NCBI GenBank assembly: GCA_002633005.1
Contig: NMRA01000144.1
Coordinates: forward strand, 479,545-543,544
DNA from: Phoronis australis
Lineage: Eukaryota; Animalia; Phoronida
Direction of reading: 5' to 3'
Length of the DNA: 64,000 nucleotides
The notes beneath the pieces were generated by a model, which made no database searches, was not told the origin of the DNA, and saw only the letters and a program-made list of their open reading frames with translations. How positions within the stretch are numbered: the stretch's first letter is position 1; each line of letters begins with the position of its first letter. Shown here piece by piece: positions 34,833 to 62,180 of this stretch. The position numbers and the translations under genes are program-made.

Positions 34833-37689
34833 AATGAAGACAACCGAGGTTTAGAAAGATGGTTGGCATGCACGTGCTTTGCTCGTGAAAATCGCTTATA
34901 TCCTTTCGCGCGACCGACCGTAAGGGAGATCAGGACTAGTTCGGCCCCAGTTTCGAAAAATATAAATTTCTCACAAAATCCTTCAAATTTATTGAGAAAT
35001 TAGGAAATTTCAAGGAGTCTTTCTGGGATATGCAATTGATGATTTCGTCACAATTATAACAGTGCAATTTGCATTCGAAGTGATCAGGCTGTACTGCTCC
35101 ATGGCTGGGTAAGTCCAGGGTAACTAAGGCCCGCAGACATAGACATCGCTGATATCCGTACTTTGACTCGTAGTTTCACTCGCTACTCTTTAAATAACTT
35201 GTAACTACTGGTATTTTCACAACTATGGTGAATCCGAACAAAACGATAGGATTGGCGTGCTTGCGCGTGCGCATGTTGGCCTATATGCACGTGCGTGTGA
35301 CTCCCGGTGAACTTTAGACATTATTAGAATATTTACGAATTTCACTTTTACCCGGTAGTATAACTTAGCCTTTGAAAGTCCAAAAATGACAATGTTCGAC
35401 TATAGGCCCAACGTGTCCCTGCCAAAAATGCTGAAAGATATCCTAAAGGAATATAAATGATTATTGTATCCTATAGAAGCATGTACTAAGATACATGTAT
35501 AAACAATTCTATTGAAATCTACGAACCTTTATGAGGAATAAAAACTGAAATAGAAGCGTGAATTTTGCTACCAAGAGAAGAAATTGAATTTTTGCGTCTT
35601 GATTTTGAGTACTTTCAGAAGTCCATTATTTTAAACTCACGGTGACTGTAACTATTTCGTGCTTTTGGCAAGTAGCACCTATGGCTGTATCTTGTTTTTT
35701 GCGCTAGACATGCCCACTTTCCGAACATGCCCCTAAGTCGAAGTAGCCCCGGTCTGCGCGACTCCAAATTGTTTACTTGATACGCAAGTCGGTGAGCATA
35801 TAACCTTTGAAAACACAGCCTTTGTCAGTACCCGATTAAGGGTTTGCGACGCTCTAAGCTATCAGAAGTCCGGGGGCCCCACTTACTACTCTGAGGTAGC
35901 TTATGTAGACCTATATAGTCCAGTTTTTGTTACTTGAATACCAAACGGAATAAACTAATCAATTTGAAAACCGGAATAATCAACGTATTCCTACCGGAAA
36001 AGCTGTCACTATAATCTAGTGAGCCTTTATACGAATGCGTTGAACGTGATACTGCAGTTTATTTGCTCCTCTTATGATTTTTGCGAAGTTATTTTTTATT
36101 TTAACACGGAAAACTTCAATTCTATCTTCAACTCTTCGTTTGGGAACGTTAACTTCATTCGAACTTTGAAGTCCTTATAATCTTTCTGCTTCACGTACGT
36201 ATGGGGATGCAGCAGTGCAACGCTTGTGACAATTGAAAGTTGAAAAAGCTTGCAAACAAAACAATAGATACAGCTAGTTGTTGGGAATTATGCTAATCAC
36301 TATCCATCAACTTTCCTAGATTGAAAGATTCCTTTTCAGGAATGCCGGTCCTATTTTGTTAATGATCGCTTTAATTCTTCAAATGGACCATACCAATTGT
36401 AGCAATCTGAAGGACATTTGTGTATCTAGTAGCACGTTTCGTCTTCTGCCAACGAACCCCATTGTTCAAAATCGTTCGTGAATTCATGTCTCAGTATTAA
36501 CTGTGTTTGTGTTTGTGAGTGATAAATTTTCTAGTTTTTGATTTGCCTTCAGAATTAGGCTTACATAATGTGAAGCACTCGGACAACTCATTGACAGAAT
36601 ATTCATGTTTTAATGGCTGATCAGAAGAATATCGAGACTTGTGATTTGTTCTCGAGGCAGGCCTACTCTTTTGTTTTCCGGAACTAAGGTGAAATGAAAG
36701 TATTTAGTTTGGGGATTTTTTTCAAGTCCCCTTCAAACTGTCGCATTTGTTTTCTTTTCTGATAAAAGCTGCTGCATGTTGTTTTCATTTCAATCTAAAG
36801 ACAACGGAAAGCACAGTTAAATGTCCGACTTCATTGTTGAGACATTAGCGAACGTTTTGCATGATTATGATTGAGTAATAAATGTAGGTAAAGAAATGCA
36901 TTACAAGTTATTCAACGGTTTTTCTATTATGCTATCATTAGACTACGAATCCTGGTAATCGTGAGATAGCTTACGTGAACGTTTTTTGAAATAAAAATAA
37001 CAAGACTACAAATGTATGACTACACTATGGCAAATATTCCACCCTGGGTGTGACCACGCATATAAACACACACCTTTACGTCACCGTTGACAATTTACAG
37101 CAATACAAAGCTCCCGCAAAAACAAAAGTAAACTAACAGTATAGAAAGTCAAGATATGTTGTTTATCGCTCTCTTGACGCAACTACTCACTTAAAAATTC
37201 CAAACAAAAATGTGTTTTGTGGGCCCCGTTTCTGCAAGGTGGGGTCCCTGTTTTGCGCGACATCTGTAGCTTAATGGATAATCCGGCACTGCCTTTTCTA
37301 CAATAACGTGATGATGGGAACTGCGAAGCATTGATACAGGTGTACATTCATCTGGTGCTTTATATTGTGTGGTTATTAAAAACAATGTGAAGCCAGAATC
37401 GGGATGATCTAAAGAGGCTTGGAATACTTTGTTGACACGTTGGTGGCCGCAGTGGTAAAATAGTGGCTTCCGAGCCCCAAGAAGACCTCTAAATCGAACC
37501 ACGACGAGACCAACATTACTTTATAATAGAGTCCTAACAATAGAATTCAAGTCGGCTACCACAGCAACGGTCAGTATGAGCGGCCGAGTGGAGATTTCAA
37601 AGACTCCGAAATACGAGTTTACCAATTCATAGTCCAATCCGAGCAGGAAACTAGGTCTTCCCGGATGTGTTATAAATAGATTTCAACAA

Positions 37690-38388
37690 ACAACGATGGT
37701 CACTGGACCAATACTCCAACCAACAGCGATGGTTATAAGACCAATACTCCAACCAACAGATGGTTACTGGACCAATACTCCAACCAACAGCGATGGTTAT
37801 AAGACCAATACTCCAACCAACAGATGGTTACTGGACCAATACTCCAACCAACAGATGGTTACTGGACCAATACTCCAACCAACAACGATGGTTACTAGAC
37901 CAGTACTCCAACCAACAAATGGTCACTGGACCAATACTCCAACAAACAAATGGTTACTGGACCAATACTTCAACCACCTGCGATAGTTACTGGACCTATA
38001 TTCCAACCAACAGCGATGGTTACTGGACCAATACTACAACCAACAAATGGTTACTGGACTAATACTCCAACCAACAGCGATGGCTACTGGACCAATACAC
38101 CAACCAACAACGATGGTTACTGGACCAATACTCCAACCAACAAATGGTTCCTGGACCAATACTCCAACCAACAGCAATGGTTACTGGACCAATACTCCAA
38201 CCAACAAATGGTTACTGGATCAATACTCCAACCAACAAATGGTTACTGGACCAATACTCCAACCAACAAATGGTTACTGGACCGATACTCCAACCAACAA
38301 ATGGTTACTGGACAGATACTCCAACCAACAAATGGTTACTGGACCGATACTCCAACCAACAAATGGTTACTGGACCAATACTCCAACC
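37690..38388 (+). repeat. Minisatellite, ~22 units of 31 bp (33-bp variants), consensus CAACAAATGGTTACTGGACCAATACTCCAAC
   Basis: Directly visible head-to-tail repeats with no unique spacers. Confidence 0.95.
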
Positions 38389-39119: not shown

Positions 39120-41098
39120 AGATATAAGTAATAAGCCAGACAATCAGCACCTAATATCACATTGTACACACAAGGGAATTAATAAAAATGTAACCAAACT
39201 TTTACAAATAAGTCCACTGGAAACAGTAAAATTGATACAAAACAGTTCATTAAATAGCATTGCACTGGGTATAAAACTACATAGTTTAATAGATAACACG
39301 ACCATTTCCAAATCTACTTTTCATTTTTTAAATGAATAGTAAACACACACAATCATATACATGTATTATGTAAAAGGCAGATGAGAACTGGACAATCTTT
39401 TCATGTATGGCAATCATCAGCTAGTAGACACACACAGTAAATAACTTAACATACTAGTAACACTTAAATTGGTTACAAGCCCACATTGTGTCCAAGAAGT
39501 CAACTTTTGATCTAGGCCACTTACCATCATAAATTTAGTCTCAATTTGTTCTTTAGGCTCAGATGAGAAATGATTTCTGGGTTTTCAAAGAAATGTGAGT
39601 TTTTTATTCACAGAGACCATACTCAACGCTATGACAAGCCAACTTGTAAAGCCTGGTCTCAAGGAATGATGTACTGTAAGTTCTTTCAAAGCACTGGCAC
39701 CCGTTTCATGAATTGTGACTGAAAACTTAAGGCAGTAATTTGGTTTTCACAATTGCTGAGTGAAGGTTTGGCCAAGTACTTACGCCAGTCTGAAATTTTC
39801 TCAGTAACTAGCACTATGCGTTTATTCTCCAAGACAATTATTTTTTCTTTCCTGAGATTTAATTAGTACTTTTCAAAAAGATTTTTGTGAAGCTCAACAT
39901 CAAATATCAGACTCCAGTTTTAAGCCCCTTTCAATAAAACAGACCCTGATATCATCTCCAGTTGTACTAAAGAACAATATGAGACCAATGTCACAATGCT
40001 AAGTGATCTAAATCAAAAGTTGTTTTTGAGGTGGAGACAGGTTTCTAGATGTTTCAAGTTGAATGTTTGAGACTTCAGATCATCAAACAGATTATTGACA
40101 GACATCTGCACACAGTGTCTGCCTCATCTTTGATAATATCACAACATAAATGTACATGTATGGAATGTAAACTGATTTTGTATATTTGAGAAACACAAAA
40201 AATATCAACTACTGCAATCTTGATCACAATAATATTCTTTTCAATAAATCACTATCAGATATATAGTGAAAAGAAAGCATTAATAATGACGGATAATGTC
40301 CTTTTATTGATCAGGAGCGTTATTTTAATCCCCATCTAGATCACCTCTTGCTAACTTGTACGCTGATGTACTTCATCGCTTGAGCAGGTCTATCATACAC
40401 GCACGTACTTAGATCCATGCGTCTGTGCCAACGATAATGAGTTTATTTCAAAGACACAGTTTTGCTTATAAGCGTTTCACATATAGGCGCATGTGCCTAA
40501 GCTTTACGTATGGGTGCATAGGACTATTCCTTGTACTCATGTCTTAAACAAGAGCATTTGTACGTCTTCCCAACATATAAGGACTTCTGATTTAAATAAT
40601 TTTAAATTGAATGCACCTCAACCATTTTGTAAAGATTTTACTCAGTTCCCCACATGCTATTTAAAAAAATAAATTGCTTTAATTCAACTGAAGTGTTTGG
40701 CATAAATGCGCAAATGCATAATTCTGGATATGGCCATAACTTTGCACATTTTTGCATGGGCCTAAATATGTGCATATATGGTAAACAACTGATTCTCAAC
40801 TATCATACTGAGTAATTATTCAAAGCATCCGACAGTCAATATTTCACAAAATGGCTCCAGTTAGACTGACTCTTCAGACTAATCAATAAAATAATGTACT
40901 AGCTCAGAACATTGTGGCGTGATCTCATGTTCAAACATAATGACAATTCAACATATCCTCTGAAATAAAAAACAAACAAACAATTTTGAGTGGTTATTTT
41001 TACAAAAATGCAAGTTCTGTAGTTCTACACTGCTATAGTTTGATCAAAATTTCTTTTTGTTACCCTGTCACACTTGAGACTTGAGGGGAGTGTACTGG

Positions 41099-44000
41099 TC
41101 ACTGCACAGGAACATATCCCATTTGTAACTTGAGTAGTAAGAAAACCTGAAACAAACAATCCAATTTTTAGACTAACATCAATTAGCATAGTGTTAAATC
41201 AGCTTTATCCTAAACAAACCAATGCCCAGATAGTTATCCATGAGATGTGCAGTAAAATTCTAATACTGGAGGCATCTTTTTTAGAAACATTGAATGCTAC
41301 AAACCAGAGTAGTGAATGGGGGTCATTACTTTCACTAAAACTTGTAGCCTACTGCACATAGCAAGAGTTTAATACTTTGCTCAATAAACTCACAAACATC
41401 CTTGCTATTGTTGTCTTCTTCAATGTTCTATAACACCAGCTGACATTCTTACTTTGACACAATGTACGATGAACTGAATGGAGTTCATTTGGATGAACAT
41501 TACCCATACCTGTTTACACCTACCTTGATTTCGTGATCAGCTGAGCCAGTGATGAGCATGTCCCCGTGTAAAGCCAGACTGTTGACTGCACCCTGGTGAC
41601 GTCTCAAGGTCTGTATGGGCAGCATGTTCTCAAGATTCCAGATCTAGAAGCAACAGAACAATGACAAAGTCTAATGTGTACTTGCAGGTGTCACTTCAAC
41701 ATTATCAAATATGAACTAACGACAGTGTGAAGTATTGCAAATGCACTGGTACGTGACAACGATGGATTTCAACTTGATCAGTAGTTACTTGATATGTTAC
41801 GAATTGCACATGACGGTCCAAATTATAGCAATGGTTTGTTGATTTTAAAGCTTCTGTGCTCTTAAGAACTAAGCGTCCTCTAAATAACAGATGGCTGTTA
41901 TTTAGCGACCAAAGGTGTCATCATTTTCAGGGTCCAGAAACCTTACTTAAAAAGGATTGGGTACTATTAACTCGTTTTAGAAGAATTGGCTAACATCTAA
42001 TTTATATCTTTACAAAGAGGAAAGACCACCGACCTGTCAACATTCAAGGTGTATGACAAAACTATTCTCAATATCTTGTGCCTGGATCCTGTTCTTCCAC
42101 AAAACAAAACAAAAAATGAAAAAAAATAACTTAAATGAATGTGAAATATTTCATGTTTGGTTGCATAGAGTACCATTTCTGTAGCTTGTACTTCAAAATT
42201 TCTTACACAGAAAACCCCAAACCCTCTATGAGAAGACCACACGCACGCTCACTCTATTGACAGTGTCATAAAAATAAAAGTAATTTGTGAAATCTCACTC
42301 CTTTTTACTTTTCTGTTTATTGTGGTCTGTAGCTATTGTAGTCTTAATTGACTTCACACTGTAACACCGACATTGTGATCTACTCAAGCTGATATTATTA
42401 ACGTGCCCAGAGGGGTACAAACCTGAACACTTTGATCTACTGATGCGGATATTACAAACATGCCCGGGGGGTTAGCCAGCAAACAGCTAATTGCACCAAC
42501 ATGAGCTTGCAATTTCCTCACTGGCTTCTGCGATATGGCATCAAATATATGAAGGTTGTTCTCAGTGCCTGAAAATTTGACACATTGGTTTGATGTTCAG
42601 AGCAGATGTTAGACACAGGAAATAATTGGGTGCCGCAAAAATAAACCAGCTTGCTTGACAGCGACTGTTATGAGCTAAGGGTGGTGCAACCAGGTTGTGT
42701 GTTACTTGAAATGGACTATCTTTTCAAAACAACAATAACAGACAAATACCAGAAGCACAACAGGTCTCAACCATTGAGGGCTCTGAAATAAATTTGACAC
42801 TGCATATTGCATTAATTTCTAAGTTCTAGGGGCTTCCTTAGTTTCTGTGTGGCCCAAAAGCAGCCATTTATATTGCTTAGCAAGCAGGTCAGCCTTGGAT
42901 ACCGGATTTCTAAACTCTCATTTGCTAGAGCAAAAATCAAGAGCAACTACTACGTTTTTGTGGTTCCATGCCCATTGTGGTGAACAATGCAACGTAGAAT
43001 TGACATACCTTCAAATTTTTAGAGACTTTTCAATAACTGCTAGCAGTGGTGTTAACTGCTGTACTACCTTTAGCCGTCTCCATGATGATTTGAAGCAACA
43101 GCCCAATACACAAGCAACACTACCAACTGCAAGCTTATGGAAAGTGCCATTTATGTCTTTCCAAAAACTTTTACTGATACACCACACCATCTTTGCTCTA
43201 CACAATTTAAGTACAACAGTCAAACCTGCACACTGCCGTCATTAACAGAAGAAATGAGGAAGTTCCCGCATGGGCTGGTTCTCAGACAAGTGACAGTACT
43301 GGTCATACCCTTTAAAGAGTGTATCACTTGTCTACTCTGTATCGAAAACACTTGGATACAGCGATTATATGTTCCTACAAAATAAATTCTTCAGTACAGA
43401 ACATCGCAATTTGTTTAGCACTTATATGTAACTTTATTGCCACAAAATATCCTTGTACGTAAGTAGTTTGATTAGATGTTTTGGATCAGAAATGTTTAAT
43501 TTACACTGTCCAGCAAAGATATGATTACGAAAAAGTGACCACATGAAAATATGCACGTTATAATCATGAAGATAGGAACCAAAAGTAACAACGGTATTTA
43601 AGTGTTTCTTTCAATTGATAATCAAAATTGCAGATGTGCACAACAGAATGACACCATGGAATACCTGCAATAATGTATTGAGAAGTAACCAGTAGAGAGT
43701 AGACAGAGCCAAATTCATGGTTTAGTTTGCCCCTCATGGAAAACTTCCCTGTGCAGTCCCAGATTTCTATTGTGTTGTGAGAGCCACTGTAGACTTTATC
43801 CTGAAAGAGAGCACTTCATGAAAACCGAATCATTATGTTAATAAAAAAAAATTCATATCACTAGACTGCTGCTTGAGGTGACGGTAAAGAAATTGTTTGC
43901 TTAGGAACAACAAAGAAAGTTTTTAAAAATGCCCATTACGCAAACATAAAACAGAATTAAGTTGTACAAAATGAAGGTGGTGTATCATGGTGACTTGAAG

Positions 44001-47000
44001 CTAATTCTAGTTTACGAGGGAGTCTGGCTGGTCCAGGTTAGAACTCAGAATGTAAGTCTTTTGAAGGAGTGAACTCACTTTTGCTGGGCTTACAGCCAGT
44101 GCCCTAACCCAGTGATGCAGGCCATCAATTGTATGTAACAACTTCAAAGTTCGCAGCTCCCACACCTAAAAGAGAACTGAACAGCTCATTAAAAGCTCAC
44201 AGCATGTCATATTAGCCACTTAGCATTCTTTGCACAGAGAAAAAAGCAACTTTTCACTGTTCTTAAAAAGAGAAATTTTGGATATCCAACACCAAGAATT
44301 TCACCTCTTTCTAGAAATTTACAAGTTACACAGTAATTTGAGCTGACAGTTTTCTTCGAAGTTTTGTGATATTAAAATGGCATGGCACCAACCGATACTC
44401 AATAGCATGAACTGTTCTTTACACAATTGTTTTTGATGGAATAAGATGCAATAAAATTTATTTTAAAATTCACGTAATTAAAAAACAAAACTATCAAGAG
44501 AGAAACAGATATTTTTCACGCACTAACCTTGATCACCTTTAGTGATGACGTGAACAAGTAATCACCAGTATAAACCATAGCACAAATAACATTCGAGTGG
44601 GCATTCTGTAAACAACATATATGGATTTAACCATTAATACCACCCTGCAAGTCTCTATGACGACTAAATAATACTCACATTCTGTGAACAGCATGTATGG
44701 ATATGATAGTACTGACATTTTAGCCATTAATAAAGGCCTGCAATCTCCTAGTACACAATGACGGAATAACACCAACTCTAGAAATTAGCATCTCTATTGA
44801 AAAAATAAAATCAAAATACTACTGCATCACAAATGCATCTTGCGGACAGTACTACAAAATACAATGCAACCATAAAAGACAAAAATGACCACCCAGGGCC
44901 AGTATAACAAGCAGTTGTAACAATAAATGAGAGCACTGTTTACTATTCAGGAGAACAAAAATGTAATTAACGCTCACTAGACTAGAGTGTCTGCACCGTT
45001 AGCAGAAAGTCACGAGTTTGAGTCCCAGTCAGGACAGAGATCTTTTCAGACATAACTACAGGTCACGTGATGTGACCAACATATGGTATGTATAAAGACT
45101 TAATAAGTCTTGTATTATGGCTAGTAACATTTGGAGAAATAATCAACATAAATATTGTTTTACAAAAAATGCAAAACTCACGAAACCTGAAAAAGTATCA
45201 GGTACAGCTAAAAAATCAAGTTATATGAAATATTTGCCCTGTAGACACATTAATTTTTAAAATTAGATAGATTATTCAAACACATTTACCTGAATACAGT
45301 TGACCTCTTCATAACCCTCCAAATTCCAACACCTGAGGGTAAAGTCAGCGCCAGCGCTGTACAAAAACGAGCCTCCCACTGTCAAGACATGGACCTGAAC
45401 ACAGAAGAACCAACATTTTTAACAGACACACAGCCAACAGTTGAATCACAATGGTGCACAACATGACACTAAAAATTCCATTGTTTGGGACAGGGACAAA
45501 TTTTAACTTCTTTTGGTCAAGGTCGAATGAAGGTTGCATCAAATTTTAGAAATAGGCAATACTGCCCATCCTGAATTCAAGAATAACAAATAACAACTAC
45601 GGATTATTAACTGGAATGTTACGCACTATGGGGGTGCATCGTCAGCCACTTTCAACAGTTTTGTGAATCATCAAGTCTATTTCCAGACACTCTCGATACA
45701 AAACAATGTATCTGAAAAATATGATAAATGCTAGAATCACTCATGTTCCAATCTTAAAAACGCACCACGCAACACATGGAGATGTCCCACATCAATGTAA
45801 CATTTGTGCAATGAAAGGCTTCGGATGGAACTTGAAGATTATAATAACTACAGAAGAAGTTAATGATTTTGCTGATGGCCTTTTATGCTGGGATAGAATA
45901 TCGTGGCCAAGTGGAATTTATTTTTGTCAACTTTCTCGACAAGAATGATTATTAAGGAAATTTTGCTTTATAAATAGCAACGTTTTTACAATAAAGCTGA
46001 CATTAAAGAACAAGCCAGGAATACTTATTTGTAGCAGTGTACTGTCTTTGAAAACAGACTATGGAAAATTTGGCAATGATTTTTGAGGAAACACATTTTA
46101 CACTGCATGAAGTATTCAAGGTCACAGGCTTTGAATATGAGTACAAAACTCATCCTCTTTTTATAATATCATTCTAAAGAGAACATTCAATAATTCAATA
46201 TGTTCCATGTCACTTACCGTGTCAATATGGCCCTTCATTGTATAAATACATCCCTTGCCAAGAACGTCTAAATCCCACACTTTGATCGTTTTATCTCCAC
46301 CCCCACTGAACAGCCTTGAACCTTGACTAGCCAGTGCCACAACCTCCCCTTCATGCGACCTGTGACAGTGATGACATAAAATGGGCATTAAATAAGTATT
46401 AATCAGAGTTTTTTGCTCCTTTTACCATCTCTGCTATCCTGTTGTAAGGTCAAACAAATTGCGCAGCATATATAACAGCACCAAATTCTCTCACTGACAC
46501 AACAGGCACAAACACATTAAAACAGAATCCATCAAACATTCTTTTGGTGAATTTACCTATTTCACCCTAAGGGCTTTATTTGTAGTTCATGGTATAAAGT
46601 GGACGAAAGCATTTATTCATGACAGGTGTGTTCCAAAAACGTAATATGTTTTTCTCAAGCACTGCTCGTACTCAGTGAAATTTTGCCGATATTTCAAAAG
46701 TACTATATGAAAACTAGCCATGTCATTAATGTGACAATCATCACACAGTACTTCATCTCATCCACTACTCATCATCTCTCCTTCAACCTACTTTAGTGAA
46801 CCTATACACTTGAAGTTGAATGGCATCACCCAGTGACTGCGACGGGCAACACTTGATGTGCGTCTCAAAGGTGATTCAGTTTCTCGACGAGTTTCAAGTC
46901 GTTCCAGCTTCTCTTGCACAGTTGTTAGGGCACTGAAAAGAAAAGTATGTCACCCATTCACAGTTTCTATGACAACTAGAGGCTGTTAAACTCTGATTGG

Positions 47001-50000
47001 CTATTACAACTCCTCTTACATCAGCGCCTCCTCATTGCACAGAATACACAGTACAACCCAAAATGCCGTTTCTGCCTCATGACATTCAATTCCACCTGCA
47101 GAATCTTTACTGTTTAACTCCAGCTGAAAATGACACCTCGAGATACCACAATGGTCTATTATATAGAGTAACTGACCTGGTTGACTTAATTTCCAATGTA
47201 TACATCATGTACAGTACAGTAAGTGGCATGGTGTCCACAACTTGATTACCGTAGTTCATAAAAGTGTATACAGTACTAAGATTTTTGATGCCATTGTGAC
47301 AGCCATGAAAGTTTCACTAATACCTTTCAACCACTGTTTTGATAGTACTTACCAGACTTTGTTTAACCCCAGCATTAAAGATCGACGCATGCATGCCTAG
47401 GATCAATGTTTCCCCGAAGAGAGGAAGATTCTTCTTGTAAGCATTTTAATGTGTTCGTGGGTTTGGAAGCAAGACCACCCCCAACGATTAACTCACACTG
47501 CTTTAAAGGAGCATGCCACCCAAAAAACAACCTAATTTGTATCAATTTAGATCGAGTAGTTCTACTCCATAACGACACGTATGGTTGCGTTACCTGACAC
47601 CTGACGGCAGACGGAGGTGTTGATTGAAATTATCCAATGACGTCATCGGTTTCACACACAGTCTGTTCAGCAGTTCACAACACAGGTTACTGGTGTCAGC
47701 TTATAGCTTGAAGTCATTGTTTAACACCAATTAATCATCAAACTTCGATGTAAAACCCTTAAAAATACACCGAGTTCTTATAAAAATGTGTTGTTCTATT
47801 TCGCTCTTACGGATTTATTGGTATTTGGACACACCGTAGCCTACAAAGTTCGGCAGGCCAATAAGGTCCGTAGCAGGAGCTTGGGGTCTGTTCGGAGATA
47901 ATTTCGAAGTATTTACGGTGAGATACAGACAGGAGAACCTAGATCTGTGTTGTTTTGACTTGTGATTTTTTGAGTTCTAAACACAAAACGCTTGTTATCC
48001 TGGCCAGTGGCTCGGAGCCCGATCAGGCCCGTCGCGGCTGGCTGGATTGACTCGTAAGTTATCCCGGCCAGTGGCTCGGAAACTGATCAGACATCACGAA
48101 CATAAACCAGCCAAAGTTCAGTGGAAACTAAACTTCTTCCAGCCAAGAAAATACTACACTAGTGAGCCAAGGTAATGTGCACATGCTTATGTTGGTGAAT
48201 TAGCCACGAAACTGCAAATCTACTTACTCGTCGGGGGCCGTGAATTCACGTTCCGCTTTGGCCACAGCACCGTCAGGGCAGAAATTGTACATTGACAATC
48301 ATTATTTGAGTAATGTAAATGTAAATAAAAATTCCCCTAACACCTGGCAGTAGGATGGAAATCGAGTTGTTTCACAACAGTTTCTGCCAGCAAACACTAA
48401 ATTAGCATGAGCTCACACGGCCTAGGTCATCCTGTCAATTACTCATATTGCACTTAAAGCTGATTAACACAGTGATTTATTCATTGCCGGCTTCTCAAAT
48501 CATTTGCACTCATGAACAATCCAAAGGCATGAAAAATTGCATTTAATGAGTCAGACTTTGTTTCAGTTTTATATAAGTATTGGTTAGGGTGAGAATAATT
48601 CATTTTGAAACAGAACGCTCAGTAATAAACGCATCCTGACTTAGGACGAGCTAAGTCCCGATTTCGCAGGTGGATCATTAAGTTTTACAGGCAATTAATA
48701 CGAACAGGAATACAGTGATGAAGAAATACTACAGAGGCACCACGAACAAGCTCAGACAACGGAACATATGGAGTTATTTGGTAAGCCGGCATTCGTCAGG
48801 CACTGTCGACGTCTGCAGGCCACAGACACGGAGATGTTTCACGGCCTCATACTTGCTATATACAGCGTACATTTCATTCTTCACTACCATGAGTTACTTC
48901 CTAAGCATTTCGGACTCTCCAGGAAGTAAAAAAAAACGATATACCCGCTTTCCTCGCAGCTGCTTAGTTCAGACAAGCGGGAACAATGCACCGCAACATA
49001 GCGGCATTCACTCTGCATATGAACCACTGACGTCGCTAGCGTCGTTTCTCACCTTCCCCACAGGTTAACGCGACACCTCTTGGCACGGTAAGGTCGACTG
49101 TATGCGAGGCGATGTGGATATAAACCGATTAAGATGGCAAAAAAGACTAATTAAATCGGGTGGCATTCTCCTTTAATGCCTGTACACAGGCCTTTGGAAC
49201 ATGTTTGATTGCGTATATCAAATAGGGATAACAAAATTACAAGGCACAGCCACATCGAAACGAATTCAAGAAACAGAACACTGAACATTGATACAATTTT
49301 CATACGCTCAAAATTACCGACGAATACTGTCATGGAAGGATGGGTGGAAAGACACCATATAATAAACCTCAACTTATTTTAGTGAACGTAAAAATTTTCC
49401 CACATGCTAGCATTTTTATATTATTGGTTATAAAATTTTCGACATCTAGTCTTTGGAAATGATATTATACACATCTGTATTAAAGTACACAATCTCATTA
49501 TGCGTTCATGCAAAATTGAGACCAGTAACTGAGGAAAGTGGATCTTTGAATTTGCTGTGACTGTTCATTACATCAATGTGTAGGCCTAGGTCAGCGTGCT
49601 GATGTCTTGAACATTCCAACAGGTATCAACACCATCAAAGAGTGAAATTTTTTCCCATTAAGGTAATCAATGACTAGAAATTTCCGTCACAATGTATGTG
49701 AAATAAGATTATAATTTCAAAATTTACAAAAGCCAACCATAACCCGATCACTTTTTCACTTTATGATAATAGTTGAAAACACAAGATCGTCTTATGCGAT
49801 ACTTTAAAGATGGTCGCCTGTTTATAACTACCTTATGCATTGCTCTAGCTGTCGGGATGCTGTAGCTTTAAACTTTTCTAACGTGTCTACCTTCTCATTA
49901 AGAACATGCACCGTTGTTCTCAAAGCAGCATTTTCCAACTGTAAGGCTTTTATCTGCAAAGAATTGTTATTAAAAAAGCAGCTCTTTAAAATAATGAAAA

Positions 50001-53000
50001 TGAATACTTAATCCTTATGAACTACTGATCACATTTAACTAAACTAAGAGTGATTTGGCATTCAGCCAGATTAATAAACTTGAGACTCAGCTCCTGAAAA
50101 CATTCTTAAGGGCAAAGTTGGGCAAGCCACTGGTAACTTAGTCACAATCACAGCAGGACATTGTGTAATTTCAAACAAGATACCACAGTAACATGTCAAT
50201 CAAACCAGAGTAGCTAATGGCAACTCACCTTATCTCCATAGCCACCCTCAACAGTGATCAGCCCTCTGTAACCACAGACATTGTGGTGTTCATCTAATGT
50301 AGTGCGATCACCAATAAATGGACAACCTGCAGCGTAACATATATATTTATCGGCTACTGTTTCCAAGCAACAATTACTCCTCAGTAACAATAAAACAAGA
50401 TTCTGAATAGTGTCCTGTTAACAATGTTACAGAAATTCTTCACTTATTTAGCACACAATATAGCCGACAGGTGAAATAATAGTCAAATTTCTCCACAAAA
50501 ACAAAGGTTAAGAAAAATTTAGTCCACTGCTAAGCACTTCTTGCAGTGTGTAGAGGTCATAAAACAAAATTAAGAAAAGCTTCCATTATCTGCAATAAGA
50601 TAATCAGCCATTGAAACTTGTAAAAATGAGAATTTTAGAAATTATTTTAATGCAAAATAAGTGGAGAATTACAGTAACGTATTTATTCTCAACATAAAAC
50701 ACACCACGACACACTTATTAAAGAGAGTGGTAAGATTTACATTTTTGTGGTTTATTTTAATTTTAAAGAAGTGTCAAATATCACGATAACTAAGATAACA
50801 TTATTCAAAACAGGACCACAACATGGCTTCAACAACAAGCAAGAAAACATTCAAAATTTGCAAAAACTCCACAACAAGGCAAACAAACCCCAAGGAAATA
50901 AAATATTTCTAAAGCCTTAGATCCTATGAAGTACTTGTTATTCCTTGTTTAAGTTCGAATCTGAAGTTTAAAGAATGCTGTTCTGGACAACACAGATGTC
51001 TGAACCCTCAGGAGATTGGCCACATTGTGGGTTCACATTGGTTTCAGGGGGCCCATTTGGACATTTGCCCCTGTGGCATGTATGTAAGCAGCTGCAGCAG
51101 TCAAACTGTGTCCTAAACATGTATTGTTCCAGTTGACTCACTATCATAGATCAGCATCATGTACAGGGGGAATTCAAGGCAGTCTGCAACCGGCAAAGCT
51201 CAACTGCTTACGAATGATTAATTTCAAAATATGAATCTTTAGGAGGTACAAGTTTAATAATTGATTTTATCTCTCAGGGTCTTTTGATTCTTTGACTCTG
51301 GGGCTGAAGCTAGACCTGATTACCAATGTGGGTATTTTCCCTCATTGGAAATATCCCCCTATCATTCTTCAGAGACAAACCCATAAGGTGAGCGAGGGCC
51401 TTCGTTGTCTTCACAACATGAAAATATTCAATAACTTTCATTAATCTATTATCTGACAATGACCTGTCAAAAACTTGAACAGTTGGACACCTGTTCTCAC
51501 TCCTCGACAACACCTTGTCGCACAAACCTTTTTCATGGTGCACACACTTGTGTTTCTTGCACAAAGACAGGTGACCATCCAATTCATTGCGCTTAAAGTG
51601 ACCACAGTCGGTGTTGTTTGGACAGGGAATCCTAGAGTGGGGACAGCTGGTCTCGTGGGATTTACGAGTACCTGGAGAGGAGAGTTGATGCAATGAAACC
51701 TTAACAAAGAATATTTTGGAGTCATTATAAACGTTTAAATTATGTACAACTCTAGATTTGTTTAAAATTATAGAAATACAGCAATTTAGCTCTTGTGTAA
51801 GGTATAAAATGCATGGCAGAGTTCAATGAAATTTCATTTCTTAAAAACTTTGAAACTAATTTGTACTGTGATTTCAACATGGGTTACACTATACACCTGT
51901 CATCAAAGAACACGATTTTATGGCAGCTATTATAGAATCAGTCTTGAAAATTGAAATGACAATTCTTGCAGTAGTTTTTGTGCAAAATATAAATAGAACT
52001 GAACAATTTTACCCAATGTTATTTTTTCTTGACAACCATTTGGATCGATAACATAATCGTTTCCTTCTGCCGACCAGCTAAGACCATAACGGCAATAAAC
52101 TTCTAGGTCATCAATTTGTCCCTCAAGAGCTCTGTAACAGTAAGAATACCATCATAGTACTTAACCTGAAATAAATAAAAAAACATTTTTCAATACCAAA
52201 AATTTCCACAACAGGCACAATTAAAAAATTCTGCCATGTGTAAAGTTTCCGAAAGTGAACAAATTGTCAATGAGTGCAAATGGACGCCCTGGCACTAATC
52301 TGGACACCTGGCAAGGACGCCTAATGTATCATTTGGACGCCCACTGTCAATCAGAATTTCACCAGTTTGGACTCCCATTAAGCGAAAGATGGGTGATAGT
52401 TCAAGGGTGAAATGTTGGCTTTTTCAACTCATAAAGAAATATACAATGTGTTGCAATTAAACTAAGTTCTAAGTATTGAGAAGACCTGTCAATTATTAGC
52501 ACCTGTTTGGTTGCCAAAGTGTATACAACTGCAGTCTCTGGTTTCAAAGGTCTCGGTGTAATTGTAATTCAGTGCTTTATAGAGGGACACCAACTTAAGT
52601 TAACTCCAAACTGGTGTTTCAGAGCTGTAGTATAATGTTTTTCATCTTTTTTTAAAACATCAAAAGTGAAATGTCATTATTTTAATAATATATTGTGCCA
52701 CTAGAATATTCCCATTTAAAATTTTGAGTTTGCGCCCGTTTCATACTTTTCTATGAGTGCATTTTAATATGGAGCAGCAGTGACACCTGTTGCCAAAATA
52801 TAAACCACACACATCATCTGTGCATTTTTCTTGTGTTGGTAACTGCAGCTTTGATAATTCAATGTACGAAATATAAAGCAAGTTAAGGTGATGTGATCAA
52901 CTTAATAATAGCAATTTGAGATCACCAAAAACAGCGCAATCATCGTTCAACCAATATCTGTAATATCTGTAATATATGTTTGGTAAGGTATTTGCCTGTT

Positions 53001-56000
53001 TTCTTAAATTTAGACATAAAATCTTGATCCAGTTTTTTTAGTAAAAAAGCTCACTACAAGGGAGCTGCTTTTGTAAACTTAGATGTAAAAGCCTTGTTCT
53101 ACGCATTTTTCTAAAAAAACCTTACTGTNNNNNNNNNNNNNNNNNNNNNNNNNNNNNNNNNNNNNNNNNNNNNNNNNNNNNNNNNNNNNNNNNNNNNNNN
53201 NNNNNNNNNNNNNNNNNNNNNNNNNNNNNNNNNNNNNNNNNNNGGAATCATGGACGCCCTGTAATATTGGGAACTCCATTTCGGACACCCTATTTTCGAA
53301 ATTCTGGATAAAGTCCTGAATGAGTGTCAAACAAAATCAAGGTTTATGAAAAACAGGACTTACCAGCCTATTTCAGTAAGTCTTTTGTCTTATCCACCGA
53401 TGTAAACTTAACTTATCGAAACTGTTGGTATCACTAACTCTCATAATTACAGATATTTGTCATCATTCCCATTCACAAACATTGCCATAAGCATTCAGTG
53501 TCAGGACAGTACGCCCAGGCTTGTATCCAGGATCTCTGTGTCTTATAAGCCCAGGGAGTAGCGCACATCTCAAACGCAGAATAACACCCCATACATGGAT
53601 AAACAGTGAAGAAAAAGACAATAATTCGGCGTGTTCCAAATTCAGGAAACATGCCATCTAATTGATCAACTATAAAAACACAGATCAATAGGTCAATGGA
53701 ATTAAACAAGCATCCTAGTAGAAAGGTTTTATTGTAAAGTATGCACAATATGTCAATCAGCAGCAGATGTTGGGGGCAATGGGGGTGAAACTAATGTATT
53801 TATTCAAACACTATATGTACACAAGAGCTTATAGTAGATCATAAGATGCACTCAGACCATAGAAGAAATTCACACAAAACTATATTGAAAAAACATGTAG
53901 GAGTTCCTCTACTATGACTATAAGGGACACAAAATGCAGTTTCCAAAGTGTTATAAAATTTTCCAAGATAAAACAGGTTTCGATGACAAGCTGACATGGC
54001 CCCAATTCTCAAAAGGGGCAGAAGTGAGTGAACTTTCCATTAACTAAAAACAACCCTTGTAGTTGATTATTTGTCAGTAACAGTTTATTCAGCTTTGAAA
54101 ATGCATTTTTATGGCCAAATTTTGTCGTGTTCGTAGTTTAAAACTTAAATTAAAGAACTGTTGTCAAGTTTACGAACAGGAATATTAATCGATGCTCCTG
54201 ACAAAGTGATAGTTGCAGTTGTCAAACTGAAGTTGCATTTCAGTCTGTTTATCTGGCTAAAAACATGAATTTAGCCTTTTAATCTCATAAATTGGGCCTT
54301 TTACTCTCATAAATTCGGCCTTTTTCTCTCATAAATTTGGCCTTTTGCTTTAAAAAAATCAGACTCATAACATTCTTTACCACAATAGGTTCCTATTTGG
54401 ATCGTCAACTCAAGTTGGTAACAGAAACATAATCATCTGGTAAAGATTGTTATGAGATCAATTTCATGACTTTCAGGCTTGTAAAGTAATTCAATTTTTG
54501 GTTTTAGTTAGCTTAACAGGGCAAAAGTCTGCTCACACTAATTGAACAAAGACATGTCATGTATCCTATTATACATAGATCCTGACATCATGGCTCATTC
54601 CACAAATTTTTCAATGAAATACTATTGCAATCTCATTCATTATGTGAATTACTTGCTGAATACATGGAATTCCTTCGTTTCACCATCTCAGCTCCTCTCA
54701 CATTCCGATTGCGTCATTGCAATCCTATTGACCGATATTTTCAACATCCAGGTTCTTCATTTAGATTTCCCATACTGAATGTTGATTGTTTGGATTTAAC
54801 TCATACAAAATGAGACGTAAAACACAGAGAGATTAATATTTGTTTTGTATGGTTATCCTGTGGTCCCAATTGATCATAGGAATTTTTTTTAAGTAAACCA
54901 CTTCATTCCAAGTTGGCCATTTTTGACCTGCCAAACTAACACTCAATGTAGATTACCGGTACCGGTATCTAACTTTTGAGATTTTCAGTACTCAGGTTTA
55001 CAACCTTATCTTTTTCTCAAAAAGCAGTTTTGAATTAGGACACATACCATTATGACATTGGTCTCAAAGAGTTCCTCAATCAAAATAGGCGTGAAGTCAT
55101 GACCTGGAGTATTATGAGCTAGGTCTGAAATAATGACCTGGAGTATTATGAGCTAGGTCTGAAATAATGACATGGAGTATTATGAGCCAGGTTTGAAGTA
55201 ATGACCTGGAGTATTATGAGCCAGGTTTGAAGTAATGACATGGAGTATTATGAGCCAGGTTTGAAGAAATAAAAGATTTTCAATTCCTCCTGAGCCCAGG
55301 GATCACTGCTAAACTGAGACAAAAATAAATCATTTGGTGCACCATTTAATCTCAAAAGGTACCCATTCCTAGGGTAGCTCATTGGCGGTGCACCATTGAG
55401 GGCTGGGAGGGGCTATAGCCCCCACTTTTTTCAGTGCTGGCAGGCACCCATAGTCTGTGGGCGGTGCACCACAGGGGGACTAGCGGGTTATAGCTCCCCA
55501 CTTTTTTCAGTGCTGCGCCGCCAATGTAGCTGGTCATGAACAGTCAACCATTTCATTGGCACGTCCAGCTACACAAGAATGGGAGTAGGCTACGCAACCC
55601 TGGCCTGGGGGAGCGCTACACAGTACTACGGCTTTCGGCCGTCGTGGACGTGATATCACTTTAACAACGCACAAGAAAATATAAGAAAAATAGAACAAAT
55701 GTAAACAGTCAGATATAAATTAATGGACCCTGATTTAGAGAACCAGGCAATCACTGAATAAAGGCCGTTATTTAGTGGATGAAACTGGTTCTCTAAATCA
55801 GGGTCCATTACATCCGACTAGTGCACTGTAAACTCACTCACTTGTTCAAAACCAAGTCGGCGCTTCGGCAGGGGCCGGAGTCAATCGGGCACGTGAAGTT
55901 GCTGTTCTTGAGCCTAGTTTCAATACATTTTCTACAGAACGTGTGTCCGCATCTCACGATGATCATAGGACAATCAAAGACATTATTACATTCCGTACAT

Positions 56001-56536
56001 AATAAATACGAAGACGGCTTTGATAGCGCAGTAAACTTGATGNCACAAGAATGGGAGTAGGCTACGCAACCCTGGCCTGGGGGAGCGCTACACTTTACAG
56101 TACTACGGCTTTCGGCCGTCGTGGACGTGATATCACTTTAACAACGCACAAGAAAATATAAGAAAAATAGAACAAATGTAAACAGTCAGATATAAATTAA
56201 TGGTCCCTGATTTAGAGAACCAGGCAATCACTGAATAAAGGCCGTTATTTAGTGGATGAAACTGGTTCTCTAAATCAGGGTCCATTACATCCGACTAGTG
56301 CACTGTAAACTCACTCACTTGTTCAAAACCAAGTCGGCGCTTCGGCAGGGGCCGGAGTCAATCGGGCACGTGAAGTTGCTGTTCTTGAGCCTAGTTTCAA
56401 TACATTTTCTACAGAACGTGTGTCCGCATCTCACGATGATCATAGGACAATCAAAGACATTATTACATTCCGTACATAATAAATACGAAGACGGCTTTGA
56501 TAGCGCAGTAAACTTGATGGGCAACCCGTTCGCCAT
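41099..56536 (-). CDS. TRAF7: TRAF7-like E3 ubiquitin ligase (RING, TRAF-type Zn fingers, coiled coil, WD40 repeats), 14 coding exons, ~567-568 aa
   Basis: Phase-consistent exons: 56536-56319 (RING, CGHTFCRKC), 52131-52013, 51671-51528 (CPNN), 50326-50229, 49953-49832, 46932-46792, 46359-46218 (LFSGGGDKTIKVWD), 45394-45290, 44605-44528, 44165-44079 (LHHWVRAL), 43800-43665, [43374-43226 OR 42568-42423], 41643-41524 (QTLRRHQG), 41146-41099 (TGA). The order is collinear with vertebrate TRAF7. It lacks the long N-terminal extension and is divergent, so it may be a paralog. Confidence 0.9.
42423..42568 (-). CDS. TRAF7: TRAF7-like alternative WD40 exon B (candidate mutually exclusive exon)
   Basis: tttcag|GC ACT GAG...GTT CAG|gtttgt, 146 nt, phase 1 to 0, open. 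Encodes GTENNLHIFDAISQKPVRKLQAHVGAISCLLANPPGMFVISASVDQSVQ. Confidence 0.85.
43226..43374 (-). CDS. TRAF7: TRAF7-like alternative WD40 exon A (candidate mutually exclusive exon)
   Basis: ttttgtag|GA ACA TAT...GTG CAG|gtttga, 149 nt, phase 1 to 0, open. Encodes GTYNRCIQVFSIQSRQVIHSLKGMTSTVTCLRTSPCGNFLISSVNDGSVQ. Confidence 0.82.
44971..45047 (+). mobile_element. Degenerate tRNA-like SINE head in a TRAF7-like intron
   Basis: GCTCACTAGACTAGAGTGTCTGC (A-box-like) ... GAGTTTGAGTCCC (B-box-like). Confidence 0.4.
53129..53243. other. Assembly gap (115 N) in TRAF7-like intron 1
   Basis: Run of n. Confidence 0.99.
55092..55266 (+). repeat. Minisatellite, 5 x 34 bp (ATGACCTGGAGTATTATGAGCYAGGTYTGAARTA)
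   Basis: Directly visible. Confidence 0.9.
55380..55526. mobile_element. Short non-autonomous DNA element with TIRs CATTGGCGG...CCGCCAATG and an internal direct repeat
   Basis: 13-bp imperfect TIRs. Flanked by TAGCT on both sides. Two internal copies of GGCGGTGCACCA...TATAGC.CCCCACTTTTTTCAGTGCTG. Confidence 0.65.
55572..56519. other. Duplication around a single N (55572-56042 = 56044-56519), probable haplotype-overlap artefact that duplicates most of the RING exon
   Basis: N at 56043. The copies differ by a 5-bp indel and one substitution. Confidence 0.85.
55721..55810. mobile_element. 90-bp palindromic mini-MITE in TRAF7-like intron 1 (second copy 56198-56287 inside the duplicated segment)
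   Basis: 26-bp arms TAATGGACCCTGATTTAGAGAACCAG / CTGGTTCTCTAAATCAGGGTCCATTA. Confidence 0.7.
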
Positions 56537-58906: not shown

Positions 58907-61900
58907 ATGACGTTCTCTCGCGTTTCAGTGACACTTGTTTTGGGATTCTTTGTACAAGGCTGCAGCGCTGTTTGCAAGATTGAATCGTGCAAAGGTATGC
59001 CTTACTGTACAACTGTTGAACTATTTAGGTATTAATTGTTGGGCAGTATTAACTTATTCAGAGTTCACCACGTGGTGAAAGGTCATGTTCAGTGCCCGCT
59101 GAAGGGCTGTTAGTCATTCTGCTCACTAGCACTGAGAGCAGCCTCCCGTTCAGTAACACTAGGACCTGGTTAAAAAGCAAGACTTCGCGAGATTACGTGA
59201 AATATTGTCGTGTATTTTAAGTGAGAACACTTGACTTAAGCTAGAGTTTAGCTAGGTCCTAGCGAAGTTCCTCTCGTTACTGAATGCACGCCTTGTTTAC
59301 TTGTTATAGCCTCTACCACTCAGGAATTAATGAGTTGTTCTCCGGACCCGCGTGGTGATATTTCATTTCATTGGTATCAAAAGCGGATTATGTAAACAAG
59401 TTAACACCTTTAGAGGAATCTGTTGGTTGCAAATGATACTCTTAATTCACGTAGTTGTTTGAATGCTCTCTTTTTCAGAATCTTCAACAAAGTTCACGGC
59501 AAGTTTCAGTCCCTGTCCCGTGCATTTTGGAGGTCTTGTGAATGTCTCTGCGAGTGGGATTTCTCGTAAGACTGTGTAATCAATCTTATTGAACGTATAG
59601 TACTTTGTCGGATGTGACTGCAACTCATCAAGTGCAGATTAGGGCATAGTCTAAAATTATTATGAGCCACCAGGTGGTCTGATCTTTTCACAACATCCCT
59701 TTGTGATCTGACCTATTTCCTCCTGACCTATCGTGGCAAGACCAAGGAGTGAACTGTGCATTTTGATTACTGAATGTTTCACTTTTCTGTTATTTGCTAC
59801 TAGTAAATTTCAGTAACTCAAATTCTTTAATTTTGAGGAGCCAACCACTGAACTATAATTAAGGTCCATGATAAGGTACCATTTTGAACTTCTCAGTACT
59901 TAAATTTTACAATCTGTGATTCTTAATTTTGAGTTTGTTAGAACAAGACAAACTCTGCAAATTTGCTTTGTCTGGTTGTTTTTTCTAGTTGGTTTTTCTT
60001 TCTTACTAAGGTTGTGTAGGCCTAAGACCCTACAAAAATGTGCAATTTCGCAAACTTCTGAAGATCGTATCTCAGAAATGGCTGATGGGATTCAAATGAA
60101 ACTTGCAAATACTATGTTTGTGCACAGTTCTTCACCGTTCTTAAGGATTGCTTTTAAAATGTTTCGCTTTTGCATGAGGAGCTAAGAAAAATTAGGACTT
60201 CCATGATTTTTAGGAAAAATATTAAAAGTTACTTAAAACAAAAAACAAAATGATAATTAAGAAAATTTCACCTTGTAGAAAATTTTTATTGAACAAAATT
60301 GGTCACGTCATTCATGTTTTGCTTTCAACGTTCCTTTCTTTTTTGCTAAAAAGGAATAGTCATGTGATCCAATTAGTGGCATATTGGTATAAAGTCTGCA
60401 TAAATACAGTTCACCTGCACATTCCAGGTAAAACCACACTTGGAGCTTAATAAAAACGTTGTTGGTTGTTTTTCGGGCCTAGTGCGTTGACACTAAAAAT
60501 GACAAGTTCTTTCATAAGTTGGACTTTAATCATGTCCTACAGACTTCATTCCTTTGACTTTTTTAGCTACGAAAGTGACTAAGATTAGTTACGATCTGAT
60601 TTTGTACTTTGCGGATGACCCAGACACTCCGTTGCTTCAACTGACCGGTGGCGCAGACTGTGCTCTTGTTAAGAAATATCACATCCCTATAAAGTGCCCT
60701 GTGGAAAAAGGAGGTACGTGATCTATTATTGAGTAACATAAACTTGTTTTTAACCTTTTTTAAAATGCGTAAAAGAGAGCGAAGTGGAATTGTTGCTGAG
60801 GCCGTCCTGCTAGTAAAGTTCAGTGTACTGGACAATGCTATATCGTTAATAAATATGGTGGACATTTTTAAGGATGTCGTAATCAAGGGTAATGTTAACC
60901 CTGTGATTTTTAACACTGCTTACGAAATCGAACCAAACAGAGAGTTCGAGAAAGGAAACATAAACCCATTTGATGGGGTAACTTTTTCAAAAGTGTCCTC
61001 GACTCCAGTCAACGAGATCGTGAGCAAGTGGAACACCTCAACAGCCAGTGAAGAAATAATTTAAAATTGTGGACAGCCTTAAAGTCTGATGTATGCTTCC
61101 AAAATTTTTATCATCAGTCAAGATGTATGCGAGGCTTGAATTTTAAATTATTCGCCGTTTTACATCTCCTTAATGACAGGAGTTGTAACCACCAGGAATT
61201 ACTGAAATTCAGCACCTTAGCAGCAGCACCTATAATTCACCAGTGATTTTGTTTATTTAAAGCAGCTCTTGTACTCAGATAGTGTTTCAATATTGTAGTA
61301 TAGGCCTTGGGTACACTATCCGCACTCGAACTAGTTACATGGCACTGGTAAGCCTTCAACTATCTATCCGAATCATGCGGTGCGATTGGTTATGAGTTCA
61401 GTCTTAGATCGGAGAATAGACACTGGACCTAGGCCTAGATAGATAAGGTAAATAACTATAGACCTATGGAGAGTCTCTATGGCAATGACACTAACTGAAC
61501 TGTATCATCCGTCCAGACCACACATATGAAAAAGAGTTTGATGTTAAGCTGTTCAAAAAAGTGAGAATACAATATGTGAAACTGTAATATTGAAATTGAT
61601 CTGCATTTTTGTGTTTCACCATCGTGTTGTTTGTGCTGCTAAATCTGGTCACTGAAAGATTTTGTTTTGTTTGTAAACAAGTTATTCACATCGTCATCGT
61701 TTTAATGAGATATAGTCGCTTTAAACGAGTTTGTTAAATGCCTGGTGTTTTTCACCCCGTTAGAACAAGGTTTGAATATGAAAAAGAGTTTGATGTTAAG
61801 CTGTTCAAAAAAGTGAGAATACAATATGTGAAACTGTAATATTGAAACTGATCTGCATTTTTGTGTTTCACCATCGTGTTGTTTGTGCTGCTAAATCTGG

Positions 61901-62180
61901 TCACTGAAAGATTTTGTTTTGTTTGTAAACAAGTTATTCACATCCTCATCGTTTTAATGAGACATAGTCGCTTTAAACGAGTTTGTTAAATGCCTGGTGT
62001 TTTTCATCTAGAAAAACAATCAAAACTATAAATGAAGACTGGTTGTGTTATCTCATTTTATTAATAGAAATAGCGTGGACAGTGGGCAACGTTAACAGAA
62101 TATACACTGCCTTTATTGCAGAGCAACTTGGCGTGAAGAATAAAATTCTTAAAGTACCGTCAGACGAATCACTAGACCCA
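58907..62180 (+). CDS. Secreted ML-domain (MD-2-related lipid recognition, NPC2-like) protein, first 4 coding exons; 3' end outside the window
   Basis: Exons 58907-58994 (signal peptide MTFSRVSVTLVLGFFVQGCSA-VCKIESCK), 59479-59565 (SFSPCPVHFGGLVNVSASG), 60567-60713 (...ADCALVKKYHIPIKCPVEKG) and 62122-62180 (EQLGVKNKILKVPSDESLDP). All are GT-AG and phase-consistent. The PC..(x)n..C..(x)..CP..KG cysteine pattern is typical of ML domains. Confidence 0.75.
61524..62006 (+). repeat. Near-identical tandem duplication of ~231 bp (61524-61754 and 61776-62006; period 252)
   Basis: ATATGAAAAAGAGTTTG...CCTGGTGTTTTTCA occurs twice with only a few substitutions. Confidence 0.9.

Follow-up and report, generated by a model that had tools for sequence, protein, structure and literature searches.

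Tandem WD40 exons in a TRAF7-like gene of Phoronis australis: a probable either-or pair, one route of which is seen in part

Does a gene that carries two copies of one WD40-encoding exon, side by side, use them as alternatives, and what would the exchange alter in the protein? The question is raised by a 64,000-nucleotide (nt) window of the Phoronis australis genome (contig NMRA01000144.1, positions 479,545 to 543,544; "the window" here means this whole stretch). On its minus strand lies a gene for a TRAF7-like protein, a putative RING E3 ligase with a WD40 propeller, in which two similar exons, A and B, stand between a constitutive upstream exon, U, and a constitutive downstream exon, D. We consider the best explanation, at a probability of about 0.6, to be that A and B are an old and genuine pair of mutually exclusive exons, with the A route seldom carried through to D in the material sampled. 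The elements at the center of the question are the following, where U>A denotes an RNA joint from U to A.

43665..43800, minus strand: upstream constitutive exon U, ending in phase 1 (RNA joints: 14 reads in, 15 out to A, 5 out to B)
43226..43374, minus strand: alternative exon A, in which the GH His is Met (acceptor used in RNA; donor use not seen)
42569..43225, minus strand: A-B intron, 657 nt (covered by sense reads in each of the three RNA runs, which the constitutive introns are not)
42423..42568, minus strand: alternative exon B, in which the His is kept (U>B 5 reads, B>D 31 reads)
41524..41643, minus strand: downstream constitutive exon D, starting in phase 0 and encoding the end of repeat 6 and repeat 7 (inflow from B 31 reads, outflow 33)

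A and B are confirmed as tandem-duplicated, homologous WD40 exons of the same phases. In minus-strand order, U (43800-43665) leaves off in phase 1 and D (41643-41524) resumes in phase 0; the two exons between them, A at 43374-43226 (149 nt) and B at 42568-42423 (146 nt), both run from phase 1 to phase 0, each with an AG acceptor and a donor of CAG followed by gtttg. An earlier sequence-only reading of this DNA had given these coordinates, phases, lengths and donors, and all of them held, AG/GT ends included. So did its claim that inclusion of both exons or of neither breaks the frame: translation of the four combinations leaves U-A-D and U-B-D open and U-A-B-D and U-D frameshifted. Frameshifted products of this kind are expected to go to nonsense-mediated decay (NMD), so that both-or-neither splicing would yield RNA that decays. 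The two copies share 16/49 amino acids (aa) and 68/149 nt (46%), with a protein score matched by 0/2000 shuffles, which puts the proposed tandem duplication beyond chance, and each has a Pfam WD40 match (E=4e-6 for A, E=4e-5 for B). The His of the GH motif had been read as kept in B and lost in A, and is indeed present in B and Met in A. The exchanged segment begins at the b-c turn of repeat 5, reaches strand c of repeat 6 and therefore straddles two blades; the "swappable blade" of the sequence-only reading is right in length, being one repeat long, but out of register.

RNA came from three stranded runs under the same species label (X1, X2 and X3), of which 18-19% each was read and aligned to 40600-47000, with joints listed at a threshold of 3 reads from 2 starts. 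In the order X1/X2/X3, joints into U number 5/2/7 (14), U>A (43665>43374) 6/1/8 (15), U>B (43665>42568) 0/1/4 (5), B>D (42423>41643) 5/12/14 (31), and D to the last exon 9/11/13 (33). At this threshold and depth the three runs list no A>D joint (43226>41643), and no A>B or U>D joint either. These junction counts, which had been proposed as a check, show an either-or choice of acceptor and a complete B isoform, and the A route only as far as A's acceptor. Of the claimed mutually exclusive splicing, the use of both acceptors (15 vs 5) and the B>D joint thus stand, and the completion of the A route is the part for which no joint is listed. A further run, X4, had no contig on A or B.

Reads also cover the A-B intron, so that unspliced molecules containing both A and B may exist, vs zero depth in six other intronic bins. 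Depth in X3 is 17 in A and 9 and 6 beyond its donor; in the middle of the A-B intron it is 1-4, and it rises just before B in X2 and X3 (10 and 7-8). Run X2 is 3'-heavy, with 10 reads on five upstream joints vs 23 on two downstream, compared with 82 vs 41 in X1 and X3 together (Fisher p=3e-4), which suggests an internal start before B or a library bias. The sense reads upstream of B in X2 and X3 lie at 42569-42790, and almost no X2 reads fall in A; transcription may begin internally there, or an acceptor that is not listed may be in use, and an AG at 42782 stands in a context resembling that of B's acceptor. At 43009 the same intron contains a consensus-like, unused donor from which no joint is listed.

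The same segment is exchanged in other animals. Cluster members were inspected for 29 proteins, which gave 17 named species with at least two annotated isoforms, and in 6/17 the isoforms differ only in the swapped segment, by 21-32 differences within about 48-49 residues. These are three sea urchins (Strongylocentrotus purpuratus, Lytechinus pictus and L. variegatus), the sea cucumber Apostichopus japonicus, the brachiopod Lingula anatina and the chiton Liolophura sinensis. Pecten maximus has one unverified model (X1) with both copies in tandem, in frame as a 50-aa insert. The remaining 10/17 vary elsewhere or otherwise: three gastropods have a 3-aa insert at the swapped exon's acceptor and two starfish a 20-29-aa insert, Nematostella and Tubulanus have an isoform truncated after the swapped exon, and Oscarella, Antedon and Hydra show unrelated changes. 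Coral cluster members covering the segment had one form in all cases inspected. A holothurian Logan transcript contig (P0207, 2267 nt) has a His-less copy joined to D, and a Holothuria model whose upstream flank matches it (P0214) carries the other copy; an A-like or His-less copy is also joined to D in urchin and Lingula models. The either-or use of the pair is thus repeated in relatives at the level of protein models, and RefSeq already holds swap isoforms as machine annotation. No description of the exon pair or of the gene as a separate paralog was found in the open-access literature, judged mostly from abstracts, with subscription journals and supplements outside the scope of the search.

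Among 80 metagenome loci obtained with the family alignment, only one (L008) spans the segment as genomic DNA for the clade of the window gene. Its single copy is flanked by introns of ~120 and ~65 nt whose positions and phases match those in the window gene, which indicates that the exon borders are ancestral. At the same acceptor, three starfish proteins (P0263, P0194, P0306) have a 16-29-aa insert and no annotated pair; the Patiria insert contains a GH-like motif and is possibly a remnant of one copy. Five gastropod proteins (P0308, P0311, P0316, P0200, P0203) have the 3-aa insert there, again with no annotated pair. In Lingula (proteins P0264 and P0265) there is a second, near-identical gene model, on a scaffold of equal length, whose annotation has the A-like segment only; it is possibly a haplotype or a recent copy.

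We take the A/B pair to be an old duplicate. A segment tree of 47 rows and 50 columns (left out were canonical-clade and protist rows, Mytilus, which has no segment, and P0201 and P0205) groups the urchin copies by type across genera and the sea cucumber copies likewise, so that the urchin pair and the sea cucumber pair would each predate those splits. Seven approximately unbiased (AU) tests on the 50-column alignment reject neither species-wise nor type-wise grouping (p 0.11-0.47). At one column, A and Lingula X1 alone among the 47 segments have a Cys, where 29/29 single-form orthologs have Asn, a hint that A and Lingula X1 may be orthologous.

Eleven paired copies keep 77% of the conserved positions in the segment and 92% in its flanks, and 28 single-form rows keep 92% and 93% (Mann-Whitney p=0.01, the rows being non-independent). 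A itself keeps 8/13 conserved WD positions and B 9/13, with 40/40 in the flanks. The GH His is present in 29/29 single-form rows, lost in one copy in Phoronis australis, the three urchins and two sea cucumber records, and kept in both copies in Lingula, the chiton and the scallop. Against a profile of the single-form orthologs A scores 58.5 bits vs 52.8 for B. That both copies are under selection, as the sequence-only reading had proposed, is supported in that neither has a stop at 46% nucleotide identity, and a 77%-identical partial copy of B already has one:

42370..42417, minus strand: 48-nt partial, decayed duplicate of the 3' third of B (77% identity; contains a stop; in frame with B read-through)

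The chance of an unconstrained 49-codon frame staying open at the local base composition is about 0.03, indels uncounted. The variants listed from RNA (one synonymous in A; three synonymous and one replacement in B) are too few to test. The decayed copy lies just past B's donor and is itself a sign that this spot keeps duplicating.

The gene around the pair can be modeled as encoding 567/568 aa in the order RING-zinc finger-coiled coil-7xWD40, with GT-AG at every joint. From 46932 downward all joints used are seen in RNA except A>D, and the exons upstream rest on homology. Its other coding exons are as follows.

56319..56536, minus strand: coding exon 1, RING finger (Pfam zf-RING_UBOX E=5e-9; GT donor)
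52013..52131, minus strand: coding exon 2, post-RING segment (tblastn of homologs; AG/GT ends)
51528..51671, minus strand: coding exon 3, TRAF-type zinc finger (Pfam zf-TRAF E=8e-4, below the curated cut-off; tblastn of homologs)
50229..50326, minus strand: coding exon 4 (open frame, AG/GT ends; weak tblastn)
49832..49953, minus strand: coding exon 5, predicted coiled coil (open frame; RNA loose ends at 46934 read into it)
46792..46932, minus strand: coding exon 6, linker and propeller-closing strand (RNA joint to the next exon, 15 reads)
46218..46359, minus strand: WD40 exon, repeat 1 (RNA joints; Pfam WD40)
45290..45394, minus strand: WD40 exon, repeat 2 (RNA joints)
44528..44605, minus strand: WD40 exon, repeat 3 (RNA joints)
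44079..44165, minus strand: WD40 exon, repeat 3/4 (RNA joints)
41099..41146, minus strand: last coding exon, up to the stop codon (RNA joint 33 reads; untranslated-region depth; the 3' untranslated region runs past 40600)

Pfam hits and gene model together contain the RING, the TRAF zinc finger, the coiled coil and all seven WD40 repeats, the same architecture as that described for human TRAF7/RFWD1 (PMC12801879, PMC11218536). The sequence-only reading called the gene TRAF7-like; that it is TRAF7 itself is not supported. Relatives were gathered with the RING exon as query and then with the family alignment; full-length ones come from sponges, cnidarians, lophotrochozoans, echinoderms and one hemichordate, and those that are named are mostly labeled TRAF7 or TRAF7-like. 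The family tree was built from 40/61 rows with the swapped exon's columns excluded and second isoforms, near-duplicates and partial models dropped. In it 31 rows, including the window gene, form one clade (Shimodaira-Hasegawa approximate likelihood-ratio test [SH-aLRT] 100), with Phallusia TRAF7 and an Ephydatia protein outside, and the window gene groups beside Lingula and Tubulanus (SH-aLRT 93). The AU test rejected a tree constrained to unite the bilaterian rows with Phallusia, the sole chordate row (p-AU 4e-7). The Phallusia protein matches the human TRAF7 structure 8IMS (E=2e-29), and a single offset places on it 18/19 wild-type residues of published human mutation labels.

On this tree the window gene is a sister paralog of TRAF7 and not its ortholog, ranging from sponges to bilaterians. 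Because sponge proteins sit on both sides, the split would be older than sponges and bilaterians, and since the gene is a separate paralog, the partners of human TRAF7 are not transferable to it. There is no vertebrate sequence among the hits of these searches, which are no test of absence from vertebrates. Other searches gave little: word-based protein searches with A or B alone had no matches, the ESM Atlas queried with the RING exon returned generic RING clusters only, and a metagenome scan with exon B had no matches.

What would the swap change? Binding to the top face of WD40 propellers relies on the positions R1-2, R1 and D-1 (PMC3419727). Four predicted positions fall in the swapped exon, D-1 of repeat 5 together with R1-2, R1 and D-1 of repeat 6, and A differs from B at each of them (Y/E, T/A, T/S, N/V); the pairs of other species differ at three or four of the four. 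Here D-1 was read directly from sequence, and R1 was placed after the Val of GH-x-x-x-V, following the FBW7 pattern. The swapped exon corresponds to human TRAF7 G575-R626, which includes Y577, T601 and Y621, and these three coincide with three of the four top-face positions. In human TRAF7, Y577C and Y621D are found in mesothelioma and T601A in the germline (PMC12801879). The human protein has E3 ligase activity, and its WD40 domain binds MEKK2/3 (PMC11218536), as well as c-Myb and Ras GTPases, and carries most disease mutations (PMC12801879, PMC11218536). A predicted Lingula model matches 7-bladed propellers with a TM score of about 0.9 of target. For the Lingula A-like and the urchin His-less isoform, AlphaFold gives confident models of the segment (pLDDT 90-95), but the underlying alignments are mostly His-bearing, so that this confidence says nothing on stability. 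We infer that the two isoforms would bind different partners, that is, that the exchange may switch the specificity of the ligase.

What might steer the choice? Steric exclusion of A and B is ruled out by the 657-nt intron between them. The sequence-only reading had proposed looking for docking and selector complementarity, and a repeat scan yielded a candidate: a site at 41717-41737 complementary both to a 12-mer 60 nt after B and to the last bases of A.

43229..43241, minus strand: predicted A-side arm, 13-bp helix with the docking site (duplex -26.1 kcal/mol; ends 3 nt before A's donor)
42351..42362, minus strand: predicted B-side selector (perfect 12-bp complement of the docking site; prediction only)
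41717..41737, minus strand: predicted docking site (75-95 nt upstream of D's acceptor; prediction only)

The predicted B-side helix has 12 bp at -18.5 kcal/mol and the A-side helix 13 bp plus an extension over the donor at -26.1 kcal/mol. From a short common core the two helices run out in opposite directions, and the 3' end of B itself pairs at only -12.5 kcal/mol. A two-partner statistic over all positions, defined after the docking site had been noticed, gave -22.6 kcal/mol vs a shuffle mean of -15.9 +/- 1.3 and was reached by 0/400 shuffles; among 122 overlapping, same-sized stretches of the window 0/122 reach -22.6, the best being -21.1. The B helix alone (matched by 22/400 shuffles) and a third partner in the U-A intron (matched by 36/400) are not significant. 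Pairing with U1 is -6.4 kcal/mol for A's donor vs -8.9 for B's, and -5.3 to -12.2 for the 12 constitutive donors of the gene. Because the A-side arm abuts the donor, pairing could activate or mask it, and the RNA data fit masking of A's donor at least as well as activation.

We propose that U is spliced to A or to B, and that the choice between them would be steered by competing pairing to the one predicted docking site downstream. Pairing of that site with A's 3' end would loop out B and bring A's weak donor near D; pairing with the selector after B would favor B>D. In the sampled material the A route may mostly stall after its first joint and leave a read-through RNA with an immediate stop, and full A>D splicing may take place in other tissues or states. 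The swap would change the four top-face positions named above, altering the protein partners, and the two versions would likely present different partner-binding faces of the propeller.

Several results weigh against this account, beginning with the missing A>D joint. Had all U>A molecules gone on to D, two or fewer joint reads in both X1 and X3 would have a probability of about 0.0009 (Poisson, assuming that the 3-read listing threshold applies per run), and B>D supplies 31 of D's 33 outflow reads, leaving little room for A>D. Depth in X1 does not drop past A's donor (6 in A, 8 and 7 beyond). As to the pairing, the statistic was framed after the fact, a 1.8-kb equilibrium fold disfavors the candidate, with p 0.7-0.9 for a local hairpin at the docking site and 0.04 for the A helix, and a sliding-window duplex screen, which favors long bulged duplexes, found nothing above shuffles (in six comparisons 8-24/25 shuffles did as well). 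In other species the isoforms come from database models, in which a lacking isoform is not a lacking exon. The segment is also not enriched for human disease positions, with 6/19 of those listed in 38% of their span.

The main alternative hypothesis, which we regard as possible but tentative, is that A acts here as a terminal or poison exon, so that the pair would be an on/off switch of the ligase and not a switch of specificity, with the pairing masking A's donor. Exons of this type are known: splicing to an alternative acceptor brings in a premature stop and retained intron sequence and is coupled to NMD. Read-through past A's weak donor meets a stop two codons on, and the product would be either RNA that decays or a 514-aa protein without the last repeat, with six repeats. 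The RNA fits this in several respects: 15/20 joints leaving U go to A and none listed leaves A, reads pass A's donor, the A-B intron is covered with six other intronic bins empty, and X1 depth fades along that intron (8, 7, 4, 1) as if transcripts ended there. So do the weaker U1 pairing of A's donor, the predicted helix that can extend over it, and models truncated right past the exon in Holothuria, Nematostella and Tubulanus. However, A has kept its WD positions nearly as well as B, together with an intact consensus donor, despite deep divergence, which a pure poison exon would not need. A, by contrast with such exons, is an entire, homologous coding exon in which WD features are conserved, and the corresponding exons elsewhere carry productive annotations. 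In the A-B intron no accumulation of molecule ends is listed, the U1 energy of A's donor lies within the range of the constitutive donors, and only 18-19% of the three runs was read.

It is quite unlikely that A is a decaying relic whose acceptor is recognized by accident, with only B mattering. A has lost residues that are invariant in 29/29 single-form orthologs (the His, one Asn and one Ser), and no productive A joint is seen in RNA. Yet its frame has stayed open against the odds given above, the adjoining partial copy of B has already acquired its stop, B lies as far from the family consensus as A does, and urchin and sea cucumber records have His-less copies joined onto D. Least probable of all, and very unlikely, is tandem joining of both copies through a shifted or hidden splice site to give an extra repeat and no swap: the Pecten X1 model is of this form but is a single unverified one, A>B is out of frame here, no A>B or intervening-exon joint is listed, and the 16 formal open phase 0-to-1 candidates in the A-B intron (10-76 nt), the hidden exon that the sequence-only reading had named as its own difficulty, include none that is WD-like by eye.

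A bolder form of the mutually exclusive pair, which we consider rather doubtful, would trace it to the last bilaterian ancestor. A two-state partner-binding face would then have been maintained for >500 million years at the homologs of Y577, T601 and Y621, with one copy giving up the His repeatedly, and in the Phoronis lineage the docking site would serve both as selector and as an off-switch that strands A.

Exchange of a WD repeat by duplicated exons is a kind already known, since mutually exclusive duplicated exons 5a/5b of tetrapod coronin-1D (CORO6) exchange about one WD repeat (PMC3203266). As with A and B, these are a duplicated pair that starts out of register with the blades. Unlike coronin-1D, a vertebrate actin regulator, the present gene encodes an invertebrate RING E3-like protein with the pair in two superphyla, the tetrad His is often missing from one copy, and the RNA seen does not complete the A route. 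What is new is such a pair in a TRAF7-like paralog. Human TRAF7 differs in that the window gene belongs to a sister clade whose grouping with chordate TRAF7 is rejected, and the word "isoform" is absent from the main text of a TRAF7 review. A docking site downstream of the cluster is a known layout in Drosophila, in 14-3-3zeta, Mhc, MRP1 and Dscam exons 4 and 9, where the site lies in the intron after the cluster and pairs with one partner per exon, one helix at a time (PMC6071210). The layout here is similar, but the A-side arm is exonic, abuts the donor and may mask it, and the pairing is a prediction.

The gene is, first, a second and ancient TRAF7-like gene that databases label TRAF7. The ligands of the TRAF7 propeller surface, the site of human tumor and developmental-syndrome mutations, are only partly mapped, and the paired isoforms are natural matched proteins, identical save 21-32 residues in one ~49-aa segment, available in tractable urchins and a sea cucumber and differing at positions homologous to human disease residues. 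The docking site would be a candidate for such a mechanism outside arthropods and vertebrates.

Elsewhere in the window, the RING exon region is present twice at 55572-56519 (476 nt, 98.7% identical), flanking a single N at 56043, and is likely an unmerged assembly overlap and not a duplicated exon. A near-perfect tandem copy at 23230-23910 (291 nt, 99.7%) across a single N at 23521 is likely an artifact of the same kind. An intronic stretch at 44970-45100 draws reads on both strands and many loose ends, and resembles part of a dispersed repeat. A tandem repeat array with a unit of ~31-33 nt occupies 37677-38388; smaller arrays lie at 21619-21815, 25636-25751 and 55086-55270, and a 231-nt direct repeat at 61524-62006.

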